Assembly (NCBI GenBank): GCA_041660885.1
Contig: JBAZVM010000006.1
Location: 15,063 to 79,062, forward strand
DNA from: Patescibacteria group bacterium
GTDB lineage: Bacteria; Patescibacteriota; Patescibacteriia; UBA9570; JAHJKD01
DNA: 64,000 bases
Direction of reading: 5' to 3'
Part shown: positions 56,168 through 61,750 of the stretch, piece by piece
How positions within the stretch are numbered: the first letter of the stretch is position 1
Layout of the letters: every line of letters begins with the position of its first letter
The notes under the pieces: generated by a model
Seen by the model: the letters and a program-made list of their open reading frames with translations, nothing else
The model's database searches: none
What the model was told of the DNA's origin: nothing
Position numbers and translations under genes: made by a program

Positions 56168-56896
56168 TGGTTCTTTTAAAATCAATTTTTGCCCTTACCG
56201 TTCAGCAAGCAATTGCTGGCCGGGTTATCCGTAACAAAAAAGCCTCAATCTAACCTTGAATTTGCAGGAGTGTTATACGGATGGAGGTTTTTTTGTTGCG
56301 GATATAAAGGGCTGCAACATACAGCGTCCGAAGGCCTCTGCCCCGCCTTGGCGGGGAAGAGGTCCGCGGTTCGCTGATATCCCTTCGAAGCTCGAGTGAA
56401 ACGAGAGCGAAGGAGGATGAATGAAGCAAATTGATATGCTCTTTACAATAGATTTATAAGCCACGCGGGAAACCAGGTTAAGGGCAGCAGGAATGTTATA
56501 TATAGGCACTTGCCTTCGAAAGCTCGTCCTATTGGTGGTGATATTATTATCGCTATTAATAGATCGAGCTTTTGGGCAAGTGCGCATAGCATTTCTACTG
56601 TCCTTGACCTGGCCCGCGTCCCTGTGAAGTTCCGAAAGGAACTGAACAGGACGGCGCGCCAGAACCCACTGAAGTGAACCCGAATGGGTACTTCACTGAA
56701 GGGGACCCCGATGGGCCCTTCAGGGAGATCGGAAACGATCTTCACGGGGATCCGAAAGGGTCTCTTGAGAGATTCGAAAGAATTTCTCGGGTATCCTGGC
56801 ATAGGGCCGGGTCAGTCATGGATAACGAGACATCACCGAGTGCGACCGCAACACAGGGCCGCACTTTTCCAGCAACTCCAAACGAGGTTAACAGCC
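56168..56896 (+). ncRNA. about 0.7 kb highly structured leader or large ncRNA candidate (many GNRA-capped hairpins)
   Basis: No credible ORF. Hairpins: 56203-56218 (GCAA loop), long-range helix 56226-56246 with 56283-56307, 56335-56362, 56382-56412, helix 56506-56527 with 56564-56584, 56621-56650 (CCTGT-GA-AGTTCC-GAAA-GGAACT-GA-ACAGG), 56696-56723, and three back-to-back GAAA hairpins at 56726-56741, 56746-56765 and 56767-56788. Confidence 0.55.
56840..56868 (+). terminator. possible attenuator hairpin just upstream of the cassette-1 RBS
   Basis: GTGCGACC-GCAACACAG-GGCCGCAC followed by TTTT. GAGG RBS at 56884-56887. Confidence 0.35.
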
Positions 56897-57640
56897 ATGA
56901 TGACCCTTCTGGCCCTTCTGACCCTGAACGCCTTCGCCGACGAGCCCGTCATCGACCGCATCATCATCCGCTCGTTCCCGACCGAGGCGGCCCCGATCGA
57001 TCCGTGCACGGACCCCTGCGCCAAGCCGGAGCCCGTCGTCAAGTACGTCGACACGGGCACGAACGACCACGACCAGGCGATTGCCGAGAGCGACAACGCC
57101 GCCGACGTCGCGATCGCCGAGAGTGCCGACGGCCGCGACATCGCCATCGCCACGGTCGAGTCCACAACCACGCTCGGTCTCGCCACCGAGGAGACCAAGC
57201 AGCAGGCGGCGCTGAGCCCGACGATCGAAGACGTCGCCCGAGCCGCTGCAGCTGGTGGGGCGCCGCTCTACATCAACATGGAGACCGGCATCATCAGCAC
57301 CGGCCGGCCCATGTACACCTCCGAGATCGTCGCCACGCAGGAAGGGAACCCCGCGGACCCGAAGACCAGCCTCACCTACGCCACCGGGCGCAAGGTGACC
57401 TCCTCGCAGCTCCGCGGCCTCCAGCCCCTCGACATCCGCCACAACGGCCACCTCGACTGGGCCCCGGCGATCGCGGCCACCGTCGTTGGATTCGCCGCGG
57501 GCTTCATCGCCGGCGGTGACTACCAGCACATCAACGACGGGCAGACCGACACCCTCTACGCGAACTACGGGCTCCGGTCCGTCCTCGCGGGCGCGGGCGT
57601 CGGCGCGGCCACCGGCGGGCTGGCCCTGTTCACCTTCTAG
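56897..57640 (+). CDS. high-GC cassette 1: secreted/membrane protein (247 aa) with Gly-zipper-like C-terminal helices
   Basis: GAGG RBS 9 nt upstream. Signal peptide MMTLLALLTLNAFA-DEP. GC3-rich codons. Repeats D(x)AIAES. C-terminal GFAAGFIAGG and AGAGVGAATGGLALFTF. Confidence 0.7.
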   Translation: MMTLLALLTLNAFADEPVIDRIIIRSFPTEAAPIDPCTDPCAKPEPVVKYVDTGTNDHDQAIAESDNAADVAIAESADGRDIAIATVESTTTLGLATEETKQQAALSPTIEDVARAAAAGGAPLYINMETGIISTGRPMYTSEIVATQEGNPADPKTSLTYATGRKVTSSQLRGLQPLDIRHNGHLDWAPAIAATVVGFAAGFIAGGDYQHINDGQTDTLYANYGLRSVLAGAGVGAATGGLALFTF

Positions 57641-57825
57641 CCTCTGGCTGGAGGTGAGCCCCGATCTTGGCCACGGGTGAGTTGGCCAAAAAACACTGCC
57701 CCGGGTTCCTTCACGAAGGGACCTGGGCAACTGGGAGGAGAAGTGAGATCAATCAAGACACAGCATCTTCTCTTCCCTTCCAGTTCAGTGCTTCTTAGCA
57801 AAGCTAGGGAGCAGTGAGAATGGAA
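57641..57825 (+). ncRNA. cassette 3-prime structured module, copy 1 (pseudoknot, mid hairpin, SD-like hairpin HP1, hairpin HP2)
   Basis: Pseudoknot: CCCG-ATCTTGGCCA-CGGG (57660-57677) with loop TTGGCCA pairing to TGGCCAA (57683-57689). Mid hairpin 57700-57727. HP1 57729-57785, with core GGGAGGAGAAG / CTTCTCTTCCC. HP2 57789-57813. Confidence 0.6.
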
Positions 57826-58021
57826 TTCGTTCTTTACAATAAAATCCGATTCAATAGCCCATTTGCAGGATAACCGGGCTGCGAAATATGACTGCATCAT
57901 AAATGATGTATCCATATTCCGTGGCCTGGCCTGCTAGGGTGCCTAAGTTCTTGTGCAGAGGGATTGTCCCACCGCGCATTTACCCCGGCTCCTTTTGGGC
58001 TGGGCCAGAACACGGTAACAC

Positions 58022-58042
58022 GGCCCTACTATCTATAGGGCC
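58022..58042 (+). promoter_or_regulatory. leader hairpin immediately upstream of the cassette-2 RBS
   Basis: GGCCCTA-CTATCTA-TAGGGCC, followed by a GGAG RBS at 58049-58052. Confidence 0.4.
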
Positions 58043-58058
58043 ATCACTGGAGAACGCC

Positions 58059-60169: not shown

Positions 60170-60187
60170 AGCTACTCCCTTTTGTTC

Positions 60188-60216
60188 TTGACATTTTCCT
60201 CTTCGCATGTTACGTT
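60188..60216 (+). promoter_or_regulatory. candidate promoter for cassette 4
   Basis: TTGACA at 60188-60193, 17-nt spacer, TACGTT at 60211-60216. Confidence 0.45.
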
Positions 60217-60404
60217 ATTTCGTTCTCCTGCCCATTTCCCATGGGGATTTTTGCGGCGAATTTTTGTGTTTATTTTAGCCGTATAAACCCCCAAAGGACA
60301 ATGGGGAGTTTCTCAAGCCGTTACCACAGGGGTGGAACGGCGATGTGCGACAGGAAGAGAGAACCCGCCCTCCCACGATAGTGGGACGGCATAGTGAGAA
60401 GACA

Positions 60405-61661
60405 ATGAAGCGGATTCTGGTGGTTTTGAGCCTTCTGCCCATGCTTGGCGTGGGCAAGTGCACCTACGATCATGACGGCGACGGTGGCTGTGACGGCATC
60501 TGGGACGATGGTTCCGAGTGCTGGGACGGCGACTGCGACGGTACCTGCGATGCCTGGCCCGAGATGTGCGACGACGGGCTCATGGGCATCGACACTGATG
60601 GCGACGGCAACTGCGACGTGATGGTCGCCGACTACACCGACAGCGACGGCGACGGATACACCCCCGCCGACGGCGACTGTGACGACACCGACGACACCAG
60701 CTACCCCGGCGCCACCGACACCTGGTACGACGGCGTGGACTCCAACTGCGACGGAGCCAGCGACTACGACCAGGACGGCGACGGCTACGACGCCCTCGCC
60801 TACAGCGGCACCGACTGCAACGACATCGACGCCAACGTGCACCCGGGTGCGTACGACGCCTGGTACGATGGCGTGGACTCGGACTGCGACGGAGCCTCGG
60901 ACTGCGACGCGGACGGCGACGGGTACACCGCCACCGCCTGCAGCGGCACCGACTGCGACGACACCGACGACACCATCTACCCCGGCGCCACCGACACCTG
61001 GTACGACGGCGTGGACTCCAACTGCGACGGAGAGGACGACTACGACCAGGACGGGGACGGGTTCCCCCTCACGGTCGACTGCGACGACACCGACGCCACC
61101 ATCCACCCCGGCGCCCCCGAAGACGGCGACGGGATCGACAACGACTGCGACGGGTTCGTGGACGAAGACGACGATTGCGTCGACGCCGACAACGACGGGT
61201 ACTGCAACACCGTCGACTGCGACGACACCGACCCGGCCGTCAACCCCGGCGCCGACGAGATCGTCGACGACTGCATCGACAACGACTGCGACGGGACGTA
61301 CGCCTTCTCCGACCCGGCCATCGCGGCCGCGTGCGGAGGAGAGGAGTCGGACACCGACACCGACACCGACACCGACACCGACACCGACACCGACACCGAC
61401 ACCGACACCGACACGGACACGGACACCGACACGGACACCAGCGCCTGCGAAGAGCAGTGCGCCGCGTGGGGAAGCGGCTCGCCCTCCCAACCCGGCAGCG
61501 AGGACTGCCGCGTGACCCTGTCCGACGGGTGCTTCCTCTACGCCGCGGGCCCGTGCAGCGCCATGATCAGCACCTACGGGTCCATCCAGAACTGGACGTT
61601 CGCCGTGGCGTCCCGGACCGACGTGGTCGAGTCCGTGGACATCGACTGGTGCGTGGAGTAG
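60405..61661 (+). CDS. high-GC cassette 4: secreted Cys/Asp-rich repeat protein (MopE-type putative metal-binding repeats), (DT)n linker, and a C-terminal domain shared with cassette 2
   Basis: Signal peptide MKRILVVLSLLPMLGVG. Five repeats of D(G)DGY...DC(D/N)DxDxxxxPGAx(D/E)xxxDGxDxxCDG. About 15 DT dipeptides. C-terminal CFLYAAGPCSAMISTYGSIQNW. Confidence 0.8.
   Translation: MKRILVVLSLLPMLGVGKCTYDHDGDGGCDGIWDDGSECWDGDCDGTCDAWPEMCDDGLMGIDTDGDGNCDVMVADYTDSDGDGYTPADGDCDDTDDTSYPGATDTWYDGVDSNCDGASDYDQDGDGYDALAYSGTDCNDIDANVHPGAYDAWYDGVDSDCDGASDCDADGDGYTATACSGTDCDDTDDTIYPGATDTWYDGVDSNCDGEDDYDQDGDGFPLTVDCDDTDATIHPGAPEDGDGIDNDCDGFVDEDDDCVDADNDGYCNTVDCDDTDPAVNPGADEIVDDCIDNDCDGTYAFSDPAIAAACGGEESDTDTDTDTDTDTDTDTDTDTDTDTDTDTDTSACEEQCAAWGSGSPSQPGSEDCRVTLSDGCFLYAAGPCSAMISTYGSIQNWTFAVASRTDVVESVDIDWCVE
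61350..61439 (+). repeat. in-frame (GACACC/GACACG)n hexanucleotide microsatellite encoding (DT)n
   Basis: About 15 consecutive hexamers. Confidence 0.9.
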
Positions 61662-61750
61662 GTTTTTTTGGCAGCGCCCCGCTATGGCGAGGTGCCTGCC
61701 CCCGGGAGGAGAAGTGAGATTGTCAGCTACTGCATCTTCTCTTCCCTCCC
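61662..61750 (+). ncRNA. cassette 3-prime module, copy 4 (a different upstream hairpin, then HP1)
   Basis: GGCAG(CGCC-CCGCTAT-GGCG)AGGTGCCTGCC hairpin. HP1 GGGAGGAGAAG / CTTCTCTTCCC at 61704-61746, with loop TGAGAT-TGTCAGCTAC-TGCAT. Confidence 0.5.

Follow-up and report, generated by a model that had tools for sequence, protein, structure and literature searches.

A GC-rich gene array in an AT-rich genome

The DNA analysed here, referred to as the window, is a 64,000-nucleotide stretch of a metagenome-assembled genome (MAG) of the Patescibacteria (assembly GCA_041660885.1, contig JBAZVM010000006.1, 87 kb long, positions 15,063 to 79,062 of the forward strand), and coordinates are those of the window unless another contig is named. 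It harbors an island of four cassettes, each built around one open reading frame (ORF) of the forward strand: c1 (56897-57640, 247 amino acids, aa), c2 (58059-58502, 147 aa), c3 (58982-59296, 104 aa, with a GTG start) and c4 (60405-61661, 418 aa). All four were found where a first-pass annotation, made from the sequence alone, had placed them. The NCBI gene calls for c1 to c3 are the same (247, 147 and 104 aa; WC752_03320 to 03330, all hypothetical proteins).

The G+C content of the window outside the island is 0.404. A 200-nucleotide (nt) sliding window revealed four blocks of 0.61-0.72 GC, at approximately 56800-57700, 58000-58600, 58900-59400 and 60400-61750, that alternate with stretches of 0.29-0.48 GC. 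The transitions are abrupt, with 42 G or C bases out of 60 at 60841-60900 and 13 out of 60 at 62221-62280, and on recount both figures agree exactly with those first given. The G+C content at third codon positions (GC3) is 0.93, 0.91, 0.97 and 0.93 for c1 to c4, as compared to 0.42 for 16 pooled neighbour genes, and first (GC1) and second (GC2) positions are raised as well (approximately 0.57-0.65 and 0.44-0.53 in the four ORFs versus 0.47 and 0.35 in the pooled neighbours). Codon choice follows the same pattern: AAG, ATC, TAC and AAC account for 100%, 95%, 100% and 100% of their choices in the cassettes versus 21%, 22%, 28% and 25% in the neighbours, a usage like that of an organism of about 70% GC. 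The GC profile and the GC3 and codon-usage tables thus bear out the four alternations of composition annotated earlier. The GC-rich tracts track the ORFs closely, as the non-coding leaders and 3' modules described below have 49-57% GC and the inverted-repeat elements between cassettes 32-33%. The coding strands are slightly C-rich in skew, with no G-runs and no strong excess of G over C. Because GC3 far exceeds GC2, the cassette ORFs are real reading frames, and this three-base periodicity, the match of c4 to the MopE family and the agreement with the NCBI calls together identify them as real genes rather than chance ORFs.

The encoded proteins

The four ORFs are complete and mutually unrelated, save for a head domain common to c2 and c4. 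The c1 protein starts with a Sec-type signal peptide (MMTLLALLTLNAFA followed by DEP) and ends with a glycine-rich hydrophobic C-terminus. The c2 protein comprises a VTAGC lipobox, a (DT/DA)n stalk and a Cys-containing C-terminal head domain, and c3 carries an N-terminal transmembrane anchor. In c4, a signal peptide precedes five MopE-type repeats, a (DT)n stalk and a C-terminal head domain. These export signals, read from the translations, are the ones that the first-pass annotation had assigned to each protein. The window also encodes Lgt, and the host should therefore be able to process a lipobox protein.

The c4 protein belongs to the MopE-related family, with five repeats matching the metal-binding motif PF11617 (E = 3e-32, 110.8 bits, cutoff 27) in which DxDGDGxxxxxDCDDxDxxxxPG recurs. 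These repeats are 55-60% identical to high-GC Myxococcota-like proteins, and their best matches are MAG proteins bearing the name Myxococcota or Deltaproteobacteria, many of which have a MYXO-CTERM-type tail. The resemblance could stem from an ancient high-GC origin or from mimicry, between which it does not distinguish. The head domains of c2 and c4, which lie C-terminal to the (Asp-Thr)n repeats, align at 36% identity. An AlphaFold model of the head domain (predicted local distance difference test score, pLDDT, of 76) displays a β-β-α-α-β core that has no fold match in the PDB at E < 0.7.

Homology searches gave little beyond the MopE repeats. A protein homology search with c1 returned c1 alone, and c1, c3 and the head domain matched nothing meaningful in Pfam, NCBIfam and PHROGs at permissive thresholds. 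NCBIfam gave weak, repeat-driven matches to Ser-Asp-repeat-type proteins, and c2 gave a likewise repeat-driven PHROG match, the only PHROG match among the cassette proteins. A word-indexed search with the head-domain alignment returned no scores and missed even P0018, the c4 ortholog presented below, so that it is a weak negative. A profile over all 379 columns of P0018 returned only MopE-repeat proteins, the head domain not being isolated in it, and a back-translated scan of JGI metagenomes for the head domain found no relative. With an acidic dipeptide stalk between the lipobox or signal peptide and a head domain at the far end, c2 and c4 look like displayed, adhesin-like proteins. Their stalks are encoded by (GACACC)n tracts at 58157-58240 and 61340-61440. 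The tract is missing from the c4 ortholog and is therefore a length-variable, slippage-prone, in-frame repeat.

A three-hairpin RNA element behind each gene

Behind each ORF, 10-60 nt past its stop codon, lies one full-length copy of a 118-126 nt element, or module: m1 (57700-57825), m2 (58562-58685), m3 (59356-59482) and m4 (61672-61791), all on the forward strand. The fold of each module has three successive hairpins with 43-47 base pairs. Hairpin 1 is variable in sequence, hairpin 2 has the form GGGAGGAGAAG...CUUCUCUUCCC, whose loop ends, UGAGAU and CAGCAU, are conserved among the copies of the window, and hairpin 3 consists of a long stem with GAGAA at its end. The module core GGGAGGAGAAGTGAGAT occurs three times, against 0.08 occurrences expected.

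A covariance model seeded from m1 and m2 only was searched, with filters off, against the window and against L001, the related contig that carries P0018. It recovered exactly six full-length copies, all on the sense strand (153, 139, 53, 42, 38 and 34 bits; E from 6e-37 to 8e-7) and all directly behind GC-rich ORFs, four in the window and two in L001, and no copy elsewhere in the 64 kb. Modules m1 and m2 score 153 and 139 bits and are 90% identical overall. Module m4 scores 53 bits and is 83% identical to an L001 copy, and m3 is the most diverged of the window copies (34 bits, E = 8e-7). The covariance alignment leaves 93.7% of cells paired, versus 45-56% with slid partners, and 26 of its 42 pairs change on both sides, values that none of 500 shuffles reached. 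As a fit to the model, this alignment is biased in favour of structure; the control with slid partners and the independent folds of single sequences (z from -5 to -8) concur. An alignment of the six modules made irrespective of structure (MAFFT/RNAalifold) had recovered hairpin 2 alone and is superseded by the covariance-model alignment. The related 3' modules of the first-pass annotation are thus borne out and prove more regular than described, and the covariance model that it had suggested, run on the window and L001, yielded stems with compensatory changes.

Every copy contains 4-6 G-U pairs on the sense strand, and its reverse complement is 8-22 kcal/mol less stable (for m1, minimum free energies (MFE) of -64 versus -42 kcal/mol). 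The module therefore acts as RNA in the cassette transcript and not as a DNA recombination site: with its compensatory changes and sense-strand G-U pairs, it is a structured RNA of the 3' untranslated region (UTR). The capture function once proposed for the modules is not supported, and the G-U pairs point to a role in the transcript, in stabilisation or regulation. Neither leaders nor modules have a sense-strand Rfam match at E ≤ 1, only tRNA being matched in the island at that threshold and in the window at the gathering threshold, and the three-hairpin 3' UTR element is new and well supported. None of the four modules was picked up by a scan for intrinsic terminators, and no T-runs follow hairpin 3. 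Exact-pattern scans for hairpin 2 returned two unrelated hairpins on Bacteroidales-type contigs and nothing else from 185,579 representative GTDB genomes, and none from JGI metagenomes and IMG/VR. The locus is thus rare in the GTDB and JGI collections as scanned with exact patterns.

The modules are mosaics. The last 101 nt of m1 and m2 (57725-57825 and 58585-58685) match at 95%, whereas their hairpins 1 differ, and m2 and m3 share 44 nt of 82% identity right after the stop codons (58516-58559 and 59312-59355). This pattern suggests gene conversion or recombination among modules.

A related locus and the age of the GC-rich state

L001 is a 6.4-kb AT-rich Logan contig from a related Patescibacteria. 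The c4 protein has thousands of MopE-repeat matches; among the 120 listed, the L001 protein P0018 is the only end-to-end one (49% BLASTP identity, 99% coverage), and it shares with c4 a unique N-terminus and the C-terminal head domain. L001 begins with a GC-rich transmembrane ORF (GC3 0.88) and its module, followed by a CACGAAG inverted-repeat element, HicBA and four MNT/HEPN pairs. Next come a remnant of an m3-type hairpin 3, a TTGACA-17-TATAAT promoter and a structured leader, and finally the c4 ortholog (GC3 0.89), the module 83% identical to m4 and a Wzy-like membrane gene. In the window, the island is likewise followed by this Wzy-like gene, with a methyltransferase gene inserted in between; the window copy is 57% identical to L001 5589-6359 over 231 residues. 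The array is real, and the first-pass view that it is not one simple block of horizontal transfer is upheld.

The two loci allow the divergence of c4 to be compared with that of its AT-rich neighbour. In aligned columns, c4 and its ortholog agree at 59%, and where the amino acids are identical, the codons are identical in 70.5% of cases versus 64.5% expected. Third-position identity is 0.644 for the c4 pair (0.54 expected from composition) and 0.455 for the Wzy-like pair (0.267 expected), which corresponds to retained signals of 0.23 and 0.26, respectively. The two genes have thus diverged equally, and joint inheritance is the simplest reading. The module behind c4 is, at 83% identity, more conserved than the third codon positions. 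The third positions of c4 have mostly turned over, yet they are still about 90% G or C, and those of the Wzy-like neighbour are held at 39-47%. By a rough estimate, a c4 gene drifting towards the host equilibrium would, at a retained signal of about 0.25, have a GC3 near 0.7.

As the L001 ortholog is syntenic, GC-rich and as diverged as its neighbour, the GC-rich state is older than the split of both lineages. The composition was kept while synonymous sites turned over; it is therefore not the trace of a recent transfer, and some force would be at work to keep the array GC-rich within an AT-rich genome. The alternative to such a local force is that the same slot received orthologs in two separate imports, from donors that happen to match in divergence, which is unlikely. 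The first-pass annotation had proposed a possible cassette locus for variable secreted or surface proteins, perhaps acquired from a high-GC organism. The exported products stand (signal peptides, lipobox), and an ultimate high-GC origin is plausible given the MopE repeats, whereas capture by recent acquisition is not supported, given an ortholog in the same position with a GC3 of 0.89 and the divergence of its AT-rich neighbour.

L001 also carries traces of rearrangement. A partial module at L001 3799-3894 (25 bits), like hairpin 3 of m3, overlaps the 3' end of an AT-rich MNT gene and may be what is left of a cassette whose place was taken by toxin-antitoxin insertions. At L001 659-3962, HicBA and the four MNT/HEPN units each have a near-identical box, GGTGGACTTTTTTTGGTTTTTTTGGTAGCAT, a few bases before the ATG, which suggests a common promoter with very short or absent leaders.

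Independent contigs across the island

Independent contigs were found by exact-protein look-ups in Logan (SRR18595301, SRR6484324), ENA (ERZ27249449) and JGI (3300014208). Six contigs from these four other datasets are 100% identical to the window and together cover 42373-57789, 58394-60730 and 61410-64000 (L009, 42373-57789; L005, 58394-60128; L004, 58656-60730; L006, 58924-60127; L007, 59092-60128; L008, 61410-64000). Every composition junction is reproduced by them save in the stretch 57790-58393, which holds the join from m1 to c2. The contigs break within the m1/m2 repeat and the internal repeats of c4, as is typical of short-read assemblers. With the exception of that stretch, the junctions are spanned, in agreement with the earlier contention that a single chimeric join does not explain the island. 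L008 continues for 7 kb past the end of the window; neither a recombinase nor another GC-rich block occurs in this extension, so that the island ends near 61800.

Leaders and promoters

Each ORF is preceded by a structured leader. The leader of c1 (56605-56896, fold z = -7.5) is multibranched, with about six hairpins that are mostly GNRA/GAAA-capped, and has the 13-mer GACCTGGCCCGCG at its start. The c2 leader (57826-58058) folds with z = -3.2, and that of c3 (58842-58981, z = -6.0) consists of a long hairpin followed by the same 13-mer. The structured c4 leader (60185-60404, z = -5.4) includes a TTGACA at 60189 that is a possible promoter element, and it could not be aligned with the leader of the L001 ortholog past the promoter region. 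All are on the forward strand. The leaders are not clearly homologous to one another, their fold z ranging from -3.2 to -7.5. Of the shared leader motifs described in the first-pass annotation, the 13-mer is exact in the c1 and c3 leaders only; the c2 version has three mismatches and is not above chance, c4 has none, and the shared 5' grammar is weak.

A strong sigma-70-like promoter, TTGACA-17-TATTAT (11 of 12 consensus matches), is located at 56136-56164 on the forward strand and directed towards the island. Between it and the c1 leader, a non-coding, highly structured stretch (56170-56600, forward strand, z = -10.7) with several long hairpins and no Rfam match could be a separate unknown RNA gene or part of a c1 leader of about 730 nt. 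The promoter scan found no good promoter for c2 or c3, and the array is therefore possibly in part polycistronic, with the modules as intercistronic elements.

Spacers and neighbouring genes

Small inverted-repeat elements, their arms of the type TGAATCACAGATTACACAGATAAAT, make up the AT-rich spacers; they are insertions at the joints, separate from the cassettes. L001 has toxin-antitoxin genes at the corresponding joints. Element A (58698-58783) and element B (59499-59597, from repeat and pattern searches) are gene-less inverted-repeat hairpins, the former with 34-nt arms TGAATCACAGATTACGCAGATAAAT that are 85% complementary. Element C (59691-60170, forward strand, 25-nt arms) carries a GxxExxY/PDDEXK_3 gene at 59757-60122, whose product matches PF13366 (E = 2e-34, 118.9 bits, cutoff 22) and TIGR04256 (E = 1e-35, 122.2 bits, cutoff 35). 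The CACAGAT inverted repeats and the GxxExxY gene noted at first pass in the spacers are thereby confirmed. An isolated half-site, TGAATCACGAA, of the L001 inverted-repeat type, lies at 61825-61835 on the reverse strand. The 64 kb contain nine TGAATCACRRA sites, seven of them at cassette joints. The arms of element C contain CACAGAT 7-mers about 9 nt apart, and L001 481-659 is the same kind of element built on CACGAAG. The GxxExxY-carrying element and its gene-less versions look like a small mobile element family with derivatives resembling miniature inverted-repeat transposable elements (MITEs). An identical GxxExxY protein is present in four other datasets. A literature search on GC-rich cassettes in Patescibacteria and on GxxExxY elements found nothing relevant in the library searched.

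The left boundary of the island is a tRNA-like gene (55925-55999, forward strand), noted earlier and now matched by the Rfam tRNA model at 47 bits. ARAGORN could name no anticodon for it; its CCA is encoded, and its anticodon arm lacks canonical pairing. Just 5' of it, at 55839-55875, is an inverted partial copy of its 5' half. Directly upstream lies an ORF of 1115 aa (52373-55720) with no family match and a Pro/Ala-rich segment at 53300-53500 of 68% GC. Outside this ORF and the island, the sole stretch above 60% GC is 47751-47950, which encodes the C-terminal, Gly-rich tail of a DUF2207 membrane protein; its GC content is due to the amino acids encoded and has no connection with the cassettes. 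The first host-type gene past the island is an AT-rich methyltransferase gene (61883-62731, forward strand, PF13489), also found on L008. It is followed by the gene for a Wzy_C, O-antigen-ligase-like membrane protein (62733-64000, forward strand, PF04932, E = 8e-16), which runs off the window. Other genes of the window encode glmS, Lgt, ribosomal protein L10, an aminoacyl-tRNA synthetase, Wzz/Wzy-type proteins and glycosyltransferases.

What may keep the genes GC-rich

We favour, with somewhat less than even confidence, a conserved surface-protein locus of ancient high-GC origin, in which the coding regions are actively kept GC-rich and structured UTRs enclose the mRNAs on both sides. The ancient origin, the active maintenance, the role in mRNA stability and the surface display are each something we infer. 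The MopE gene at least probably came, long ago, from a high-GC, Myxococcota-like bacterium. The four genes encode small exported, lipid- or membrane-anchored acidic proteins, two of which would display the shared Cys-containing head domain on Asp-Thr stalks, one of them with MopE-type repeats in addition. Selection on the transcripts would be the likeliest maintaining force: GC-rich coding RNA held between protective 5' and 3' hairpins could provide long-lived, RNase-resistant mRNAs for surface proteins. The MFE per nt of the cassette ORFs is -0.42 to -0.46 kcal/mol, as compared to -0.235 for one neighbour gene, a stability about two times higher.

Several points weigh against this reading. 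Shuffling of synonymous codons revealed no structure in the ORFs beyond that due to composition (z = -1.1, -1.7 and +0.1), so that any selection would act on composition and not on specific folds. The raised GC1 and GC2 fit a mutational or conversion bias as well as they fit selection. To hold a GC3 of about 93% through each synonymous site, selection would have to be strong, and this is difficult to reconcile with small populations. The modules are not followed by U-tract terminators. The GTDB and JGI scans returned no further copies, so that the element is either rare or too diverged for exact patterns. Finally, the co-divergence argument compares one related locus, one cassette gene and one yardstick gene; the c3 homolog is doubtful (24% identity) and c1 has none, and persistence is thus seen for c4 only.

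The leaders and modules might instead form the conserved scaffold of a capture platform, into which genes are repeatedly and recently imported from a high-GC host or neighbour. The codon usage of a 70% GC organism, the 55-60% identity of the MopE repeats to Myxococcota-type proteins and the orphan status of c1 would all fit such imports, and the mosaic modules (m1/m2, 95% over 101 nt; m2/m3, 82% over 44 nt) suggest recombination. In its favour, too, cultivated Patescibacteria are reported to live as episymbionts on other bacteria. We nevertheless consider repeated import unlikely, as it would require two independent imports of orthologs into the same slot with, by coincidence, a matching divergence. 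Among the 120 listed matches, moreover, only P0018 covers c4 over its full length, and none of the 61 of these that were inspected is a protein of a high-GC organism with the head domain. Scans of 56000-62000 for attC sites, and of neighbouring genes and the 7 kb on L008 for a recombinase or other capture machinery, were negative, and the module pattern is absent, save for the two unrelated hairpins, from the 185,579 representative genomes.

A recombination hot spot with GC-biased gene conversion is a serious rival, even if we judge it improbable. In it, nuclease- or transposase-type sites at the joints, namely the inverted-repeat elements and the PDDEXK_3 gene, would expose the cassettes to frequent break repair or allele exchange, and bias in this repair would raise their GC. 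This rival would explain why GC1 and GC2 are raised along with GC3 and why the ORFs have no RNA structure beyond composition, and it agrees with the signs of conversion among modules and with the clustering of TGAATCACRRA sites (seven of nine) at the cassette joints, where L001 has equivalent elements. A regional bias should, however, not respect reading frames as sharply as observed here, where the GC-rich tracts follow the ORFs and drop to 49-57% GC in modules and leaders and 32-33% in the inverted-repeat elements. We know of no documented conversion bias of such strength in bacteria, and cutting of the joint sites by the PDDEXK_3 protein is pure conjecture.

A further scheme, which we regard as very unlikely, is that the cassette codons are tuned to a high-GC host cell rather than to the bacterium's own ribosomes. 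In that case the leaders and the 3' element would serve to stabilise or export transcripts or DNA delivered into the host, and the signal peptides and lipobox would route the products to the host surface. If true, this would explain the persistence of a GC3 near 0.9, the constraint that follows the reading frame and the RNA tail found on these genes only.

An integron-like cassette array, or a cluster of attC sites lacking an integrase, is highly improbable. It is called to mind by small unrelated ORFs on the same strand, each with an imperfect palindrome of about 120 nt behind it, and by the toxin-antitoxin pairs of L001, which are frequent in sedentary integrons. An attC scan of both strands of 56000-62000 returned only three and one core motifs, with no valid R''(RYYYAAC)/R'(GTTRRRY) pair with complementary arms. 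Only on the sense strand do G-U pairs stabilise the hairpins, which number three instead of one; long leaders separate the cassettes, some of which have their own promoters, and no tyrosine recombinase was found among the scanned neighbours or 7 kb beyond the window.

An assembly chimera of a high-GC and a Patescibacteria genome, which the abrupt composition changes in a MAG sequence might suggest, is effectively refuted by the identical independent assemblies across all junctions outside 57790-58393 and by L001, a different genome with the same architecture and diverged sequence.

The locus bears on how compositional outliers are interpreted. Such outliers are routinely taken as recent transfers or as binning or assembly errors and are often trimmed from MAGs. 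The present one is extreme (GC3 of about 0.93 in a genome of 40% GC) and assembly-proof, and at least one of its genes is as old as the split of two Patescibacteria lineages. If maintenance of the GC-rich state holds true, a locus-specific force can keep genes far from mutational equilibrium, and the dating of transfers by amelioration is weakened. The locus also yields a new structured RNA element and candidate surface, adhesin-like proteins that may be relevant to host recognition by ultrasmall episymbionts.

Comparison with known systems

We compared the array with integrons, recent tRNA-linked islands, phage morons, silent-cassette antigenic variation, diversity-generating retroelements and Rfam families, and none of these fits. 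As the first-pass annotation had stated, no integrase, attC site, reverse transcriptase, transposase or CRISPR was found by the attC scan and the family scans of neighbours.

Integron cassettes resemble the array in that small accessory ORFs of the same orientation are each followed by a structured repeat, with toxin-antitoxin genes interspersed in the case of L001. They differ by their attC cores and integrase, both absent here (no recombinase family was found among the scanned neighbours or 7 kb downstream on L008), and the element described here is a three-hairpin, RNA-like structure of the sense strand. An attC site folding as a single hairpin of bottom-strand single-stranded DNA is ruled out by the three hairpins, the 4-6 sense-strand G-U pairs and a reverse complement weaker by 8-22 kcal/mol. 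Diversity-generating retroelements are likewise not indicated, with no reverse transcriptase family in the scanned neighbours and no long direct repeat of a cassette segment outside the ORFs.

tRNA-linked islets and phage morons share with the array a compositional contrast, foreign-type codons, a tRNA-like neighbour, leaders of their own, some promoters and exported products. In contrast to them, the array has no integrase, flanking direct repeat or prophage context, and its composition shows no amelioration while its neighbour has diverged to 57% identity. The repeat search of the window reported no repeat of the tRNA 3' end. A recently transferred genomic island does not fit: its deviating composition is present (GC3 0.91-0.97 versus 0.42), whereas its recency is not supported, as the syntenic L001 ortholog has a GC3 of 0.89 and the third-position divergence of the neighbouring host gene.

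Intercistronic or 3' stabiliser hairpins are exemplified by the repetitive extragenic palindromic (REP) sequence of Escherichia coli malE-malF. Like these, the modules are conserved, RNA strand-specific stem-loops behind coding regions for which protection from 3' exonucleases is plausible. REP-type palindromes are dispersed genome-wide, whereas the module, as searched in the 64 kb, is confined to one locus and to GC-rich genes, has about 125 nt, three hairpins and UGAGAU...CAGCAU loop motifs, and belongs to no Rfam family.

The staphylococcal Ser-Asp-repeat (Sdr/Clf) adhesins differ in having a C-terminal LPXTG signal, as opposed to the N-terminal lipobox or signal peptide found here; they have no homology to the cassette proteins outside the repeat, and the head domain has no match in the PDB. 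The common feature is an acidic dipeptide stalk, here (Asp-Thr)n, that links an anchor to a globular domain.

Finally, the Borrelia vls cassettes form a GC-rich antigenic-variation locus for a surface protein in an AT-rich genome, across divergent lineages. Silent-cassette antigenic variation of the vls or pilS type does not apply here: the cassettes are complete genes with start codons and signal peptides, not silent segments, and are unrelated save for the head domain of c2 and c4. Nor do their coding strands have the G-runs or strong G-over-C skew of vls. The one likeness is that GC-rich composition persists at a surface-protein locus although the rest of the genome is AT-rich, and by analogy it suggests that the composition of the array may be tied to the biology of the locus.

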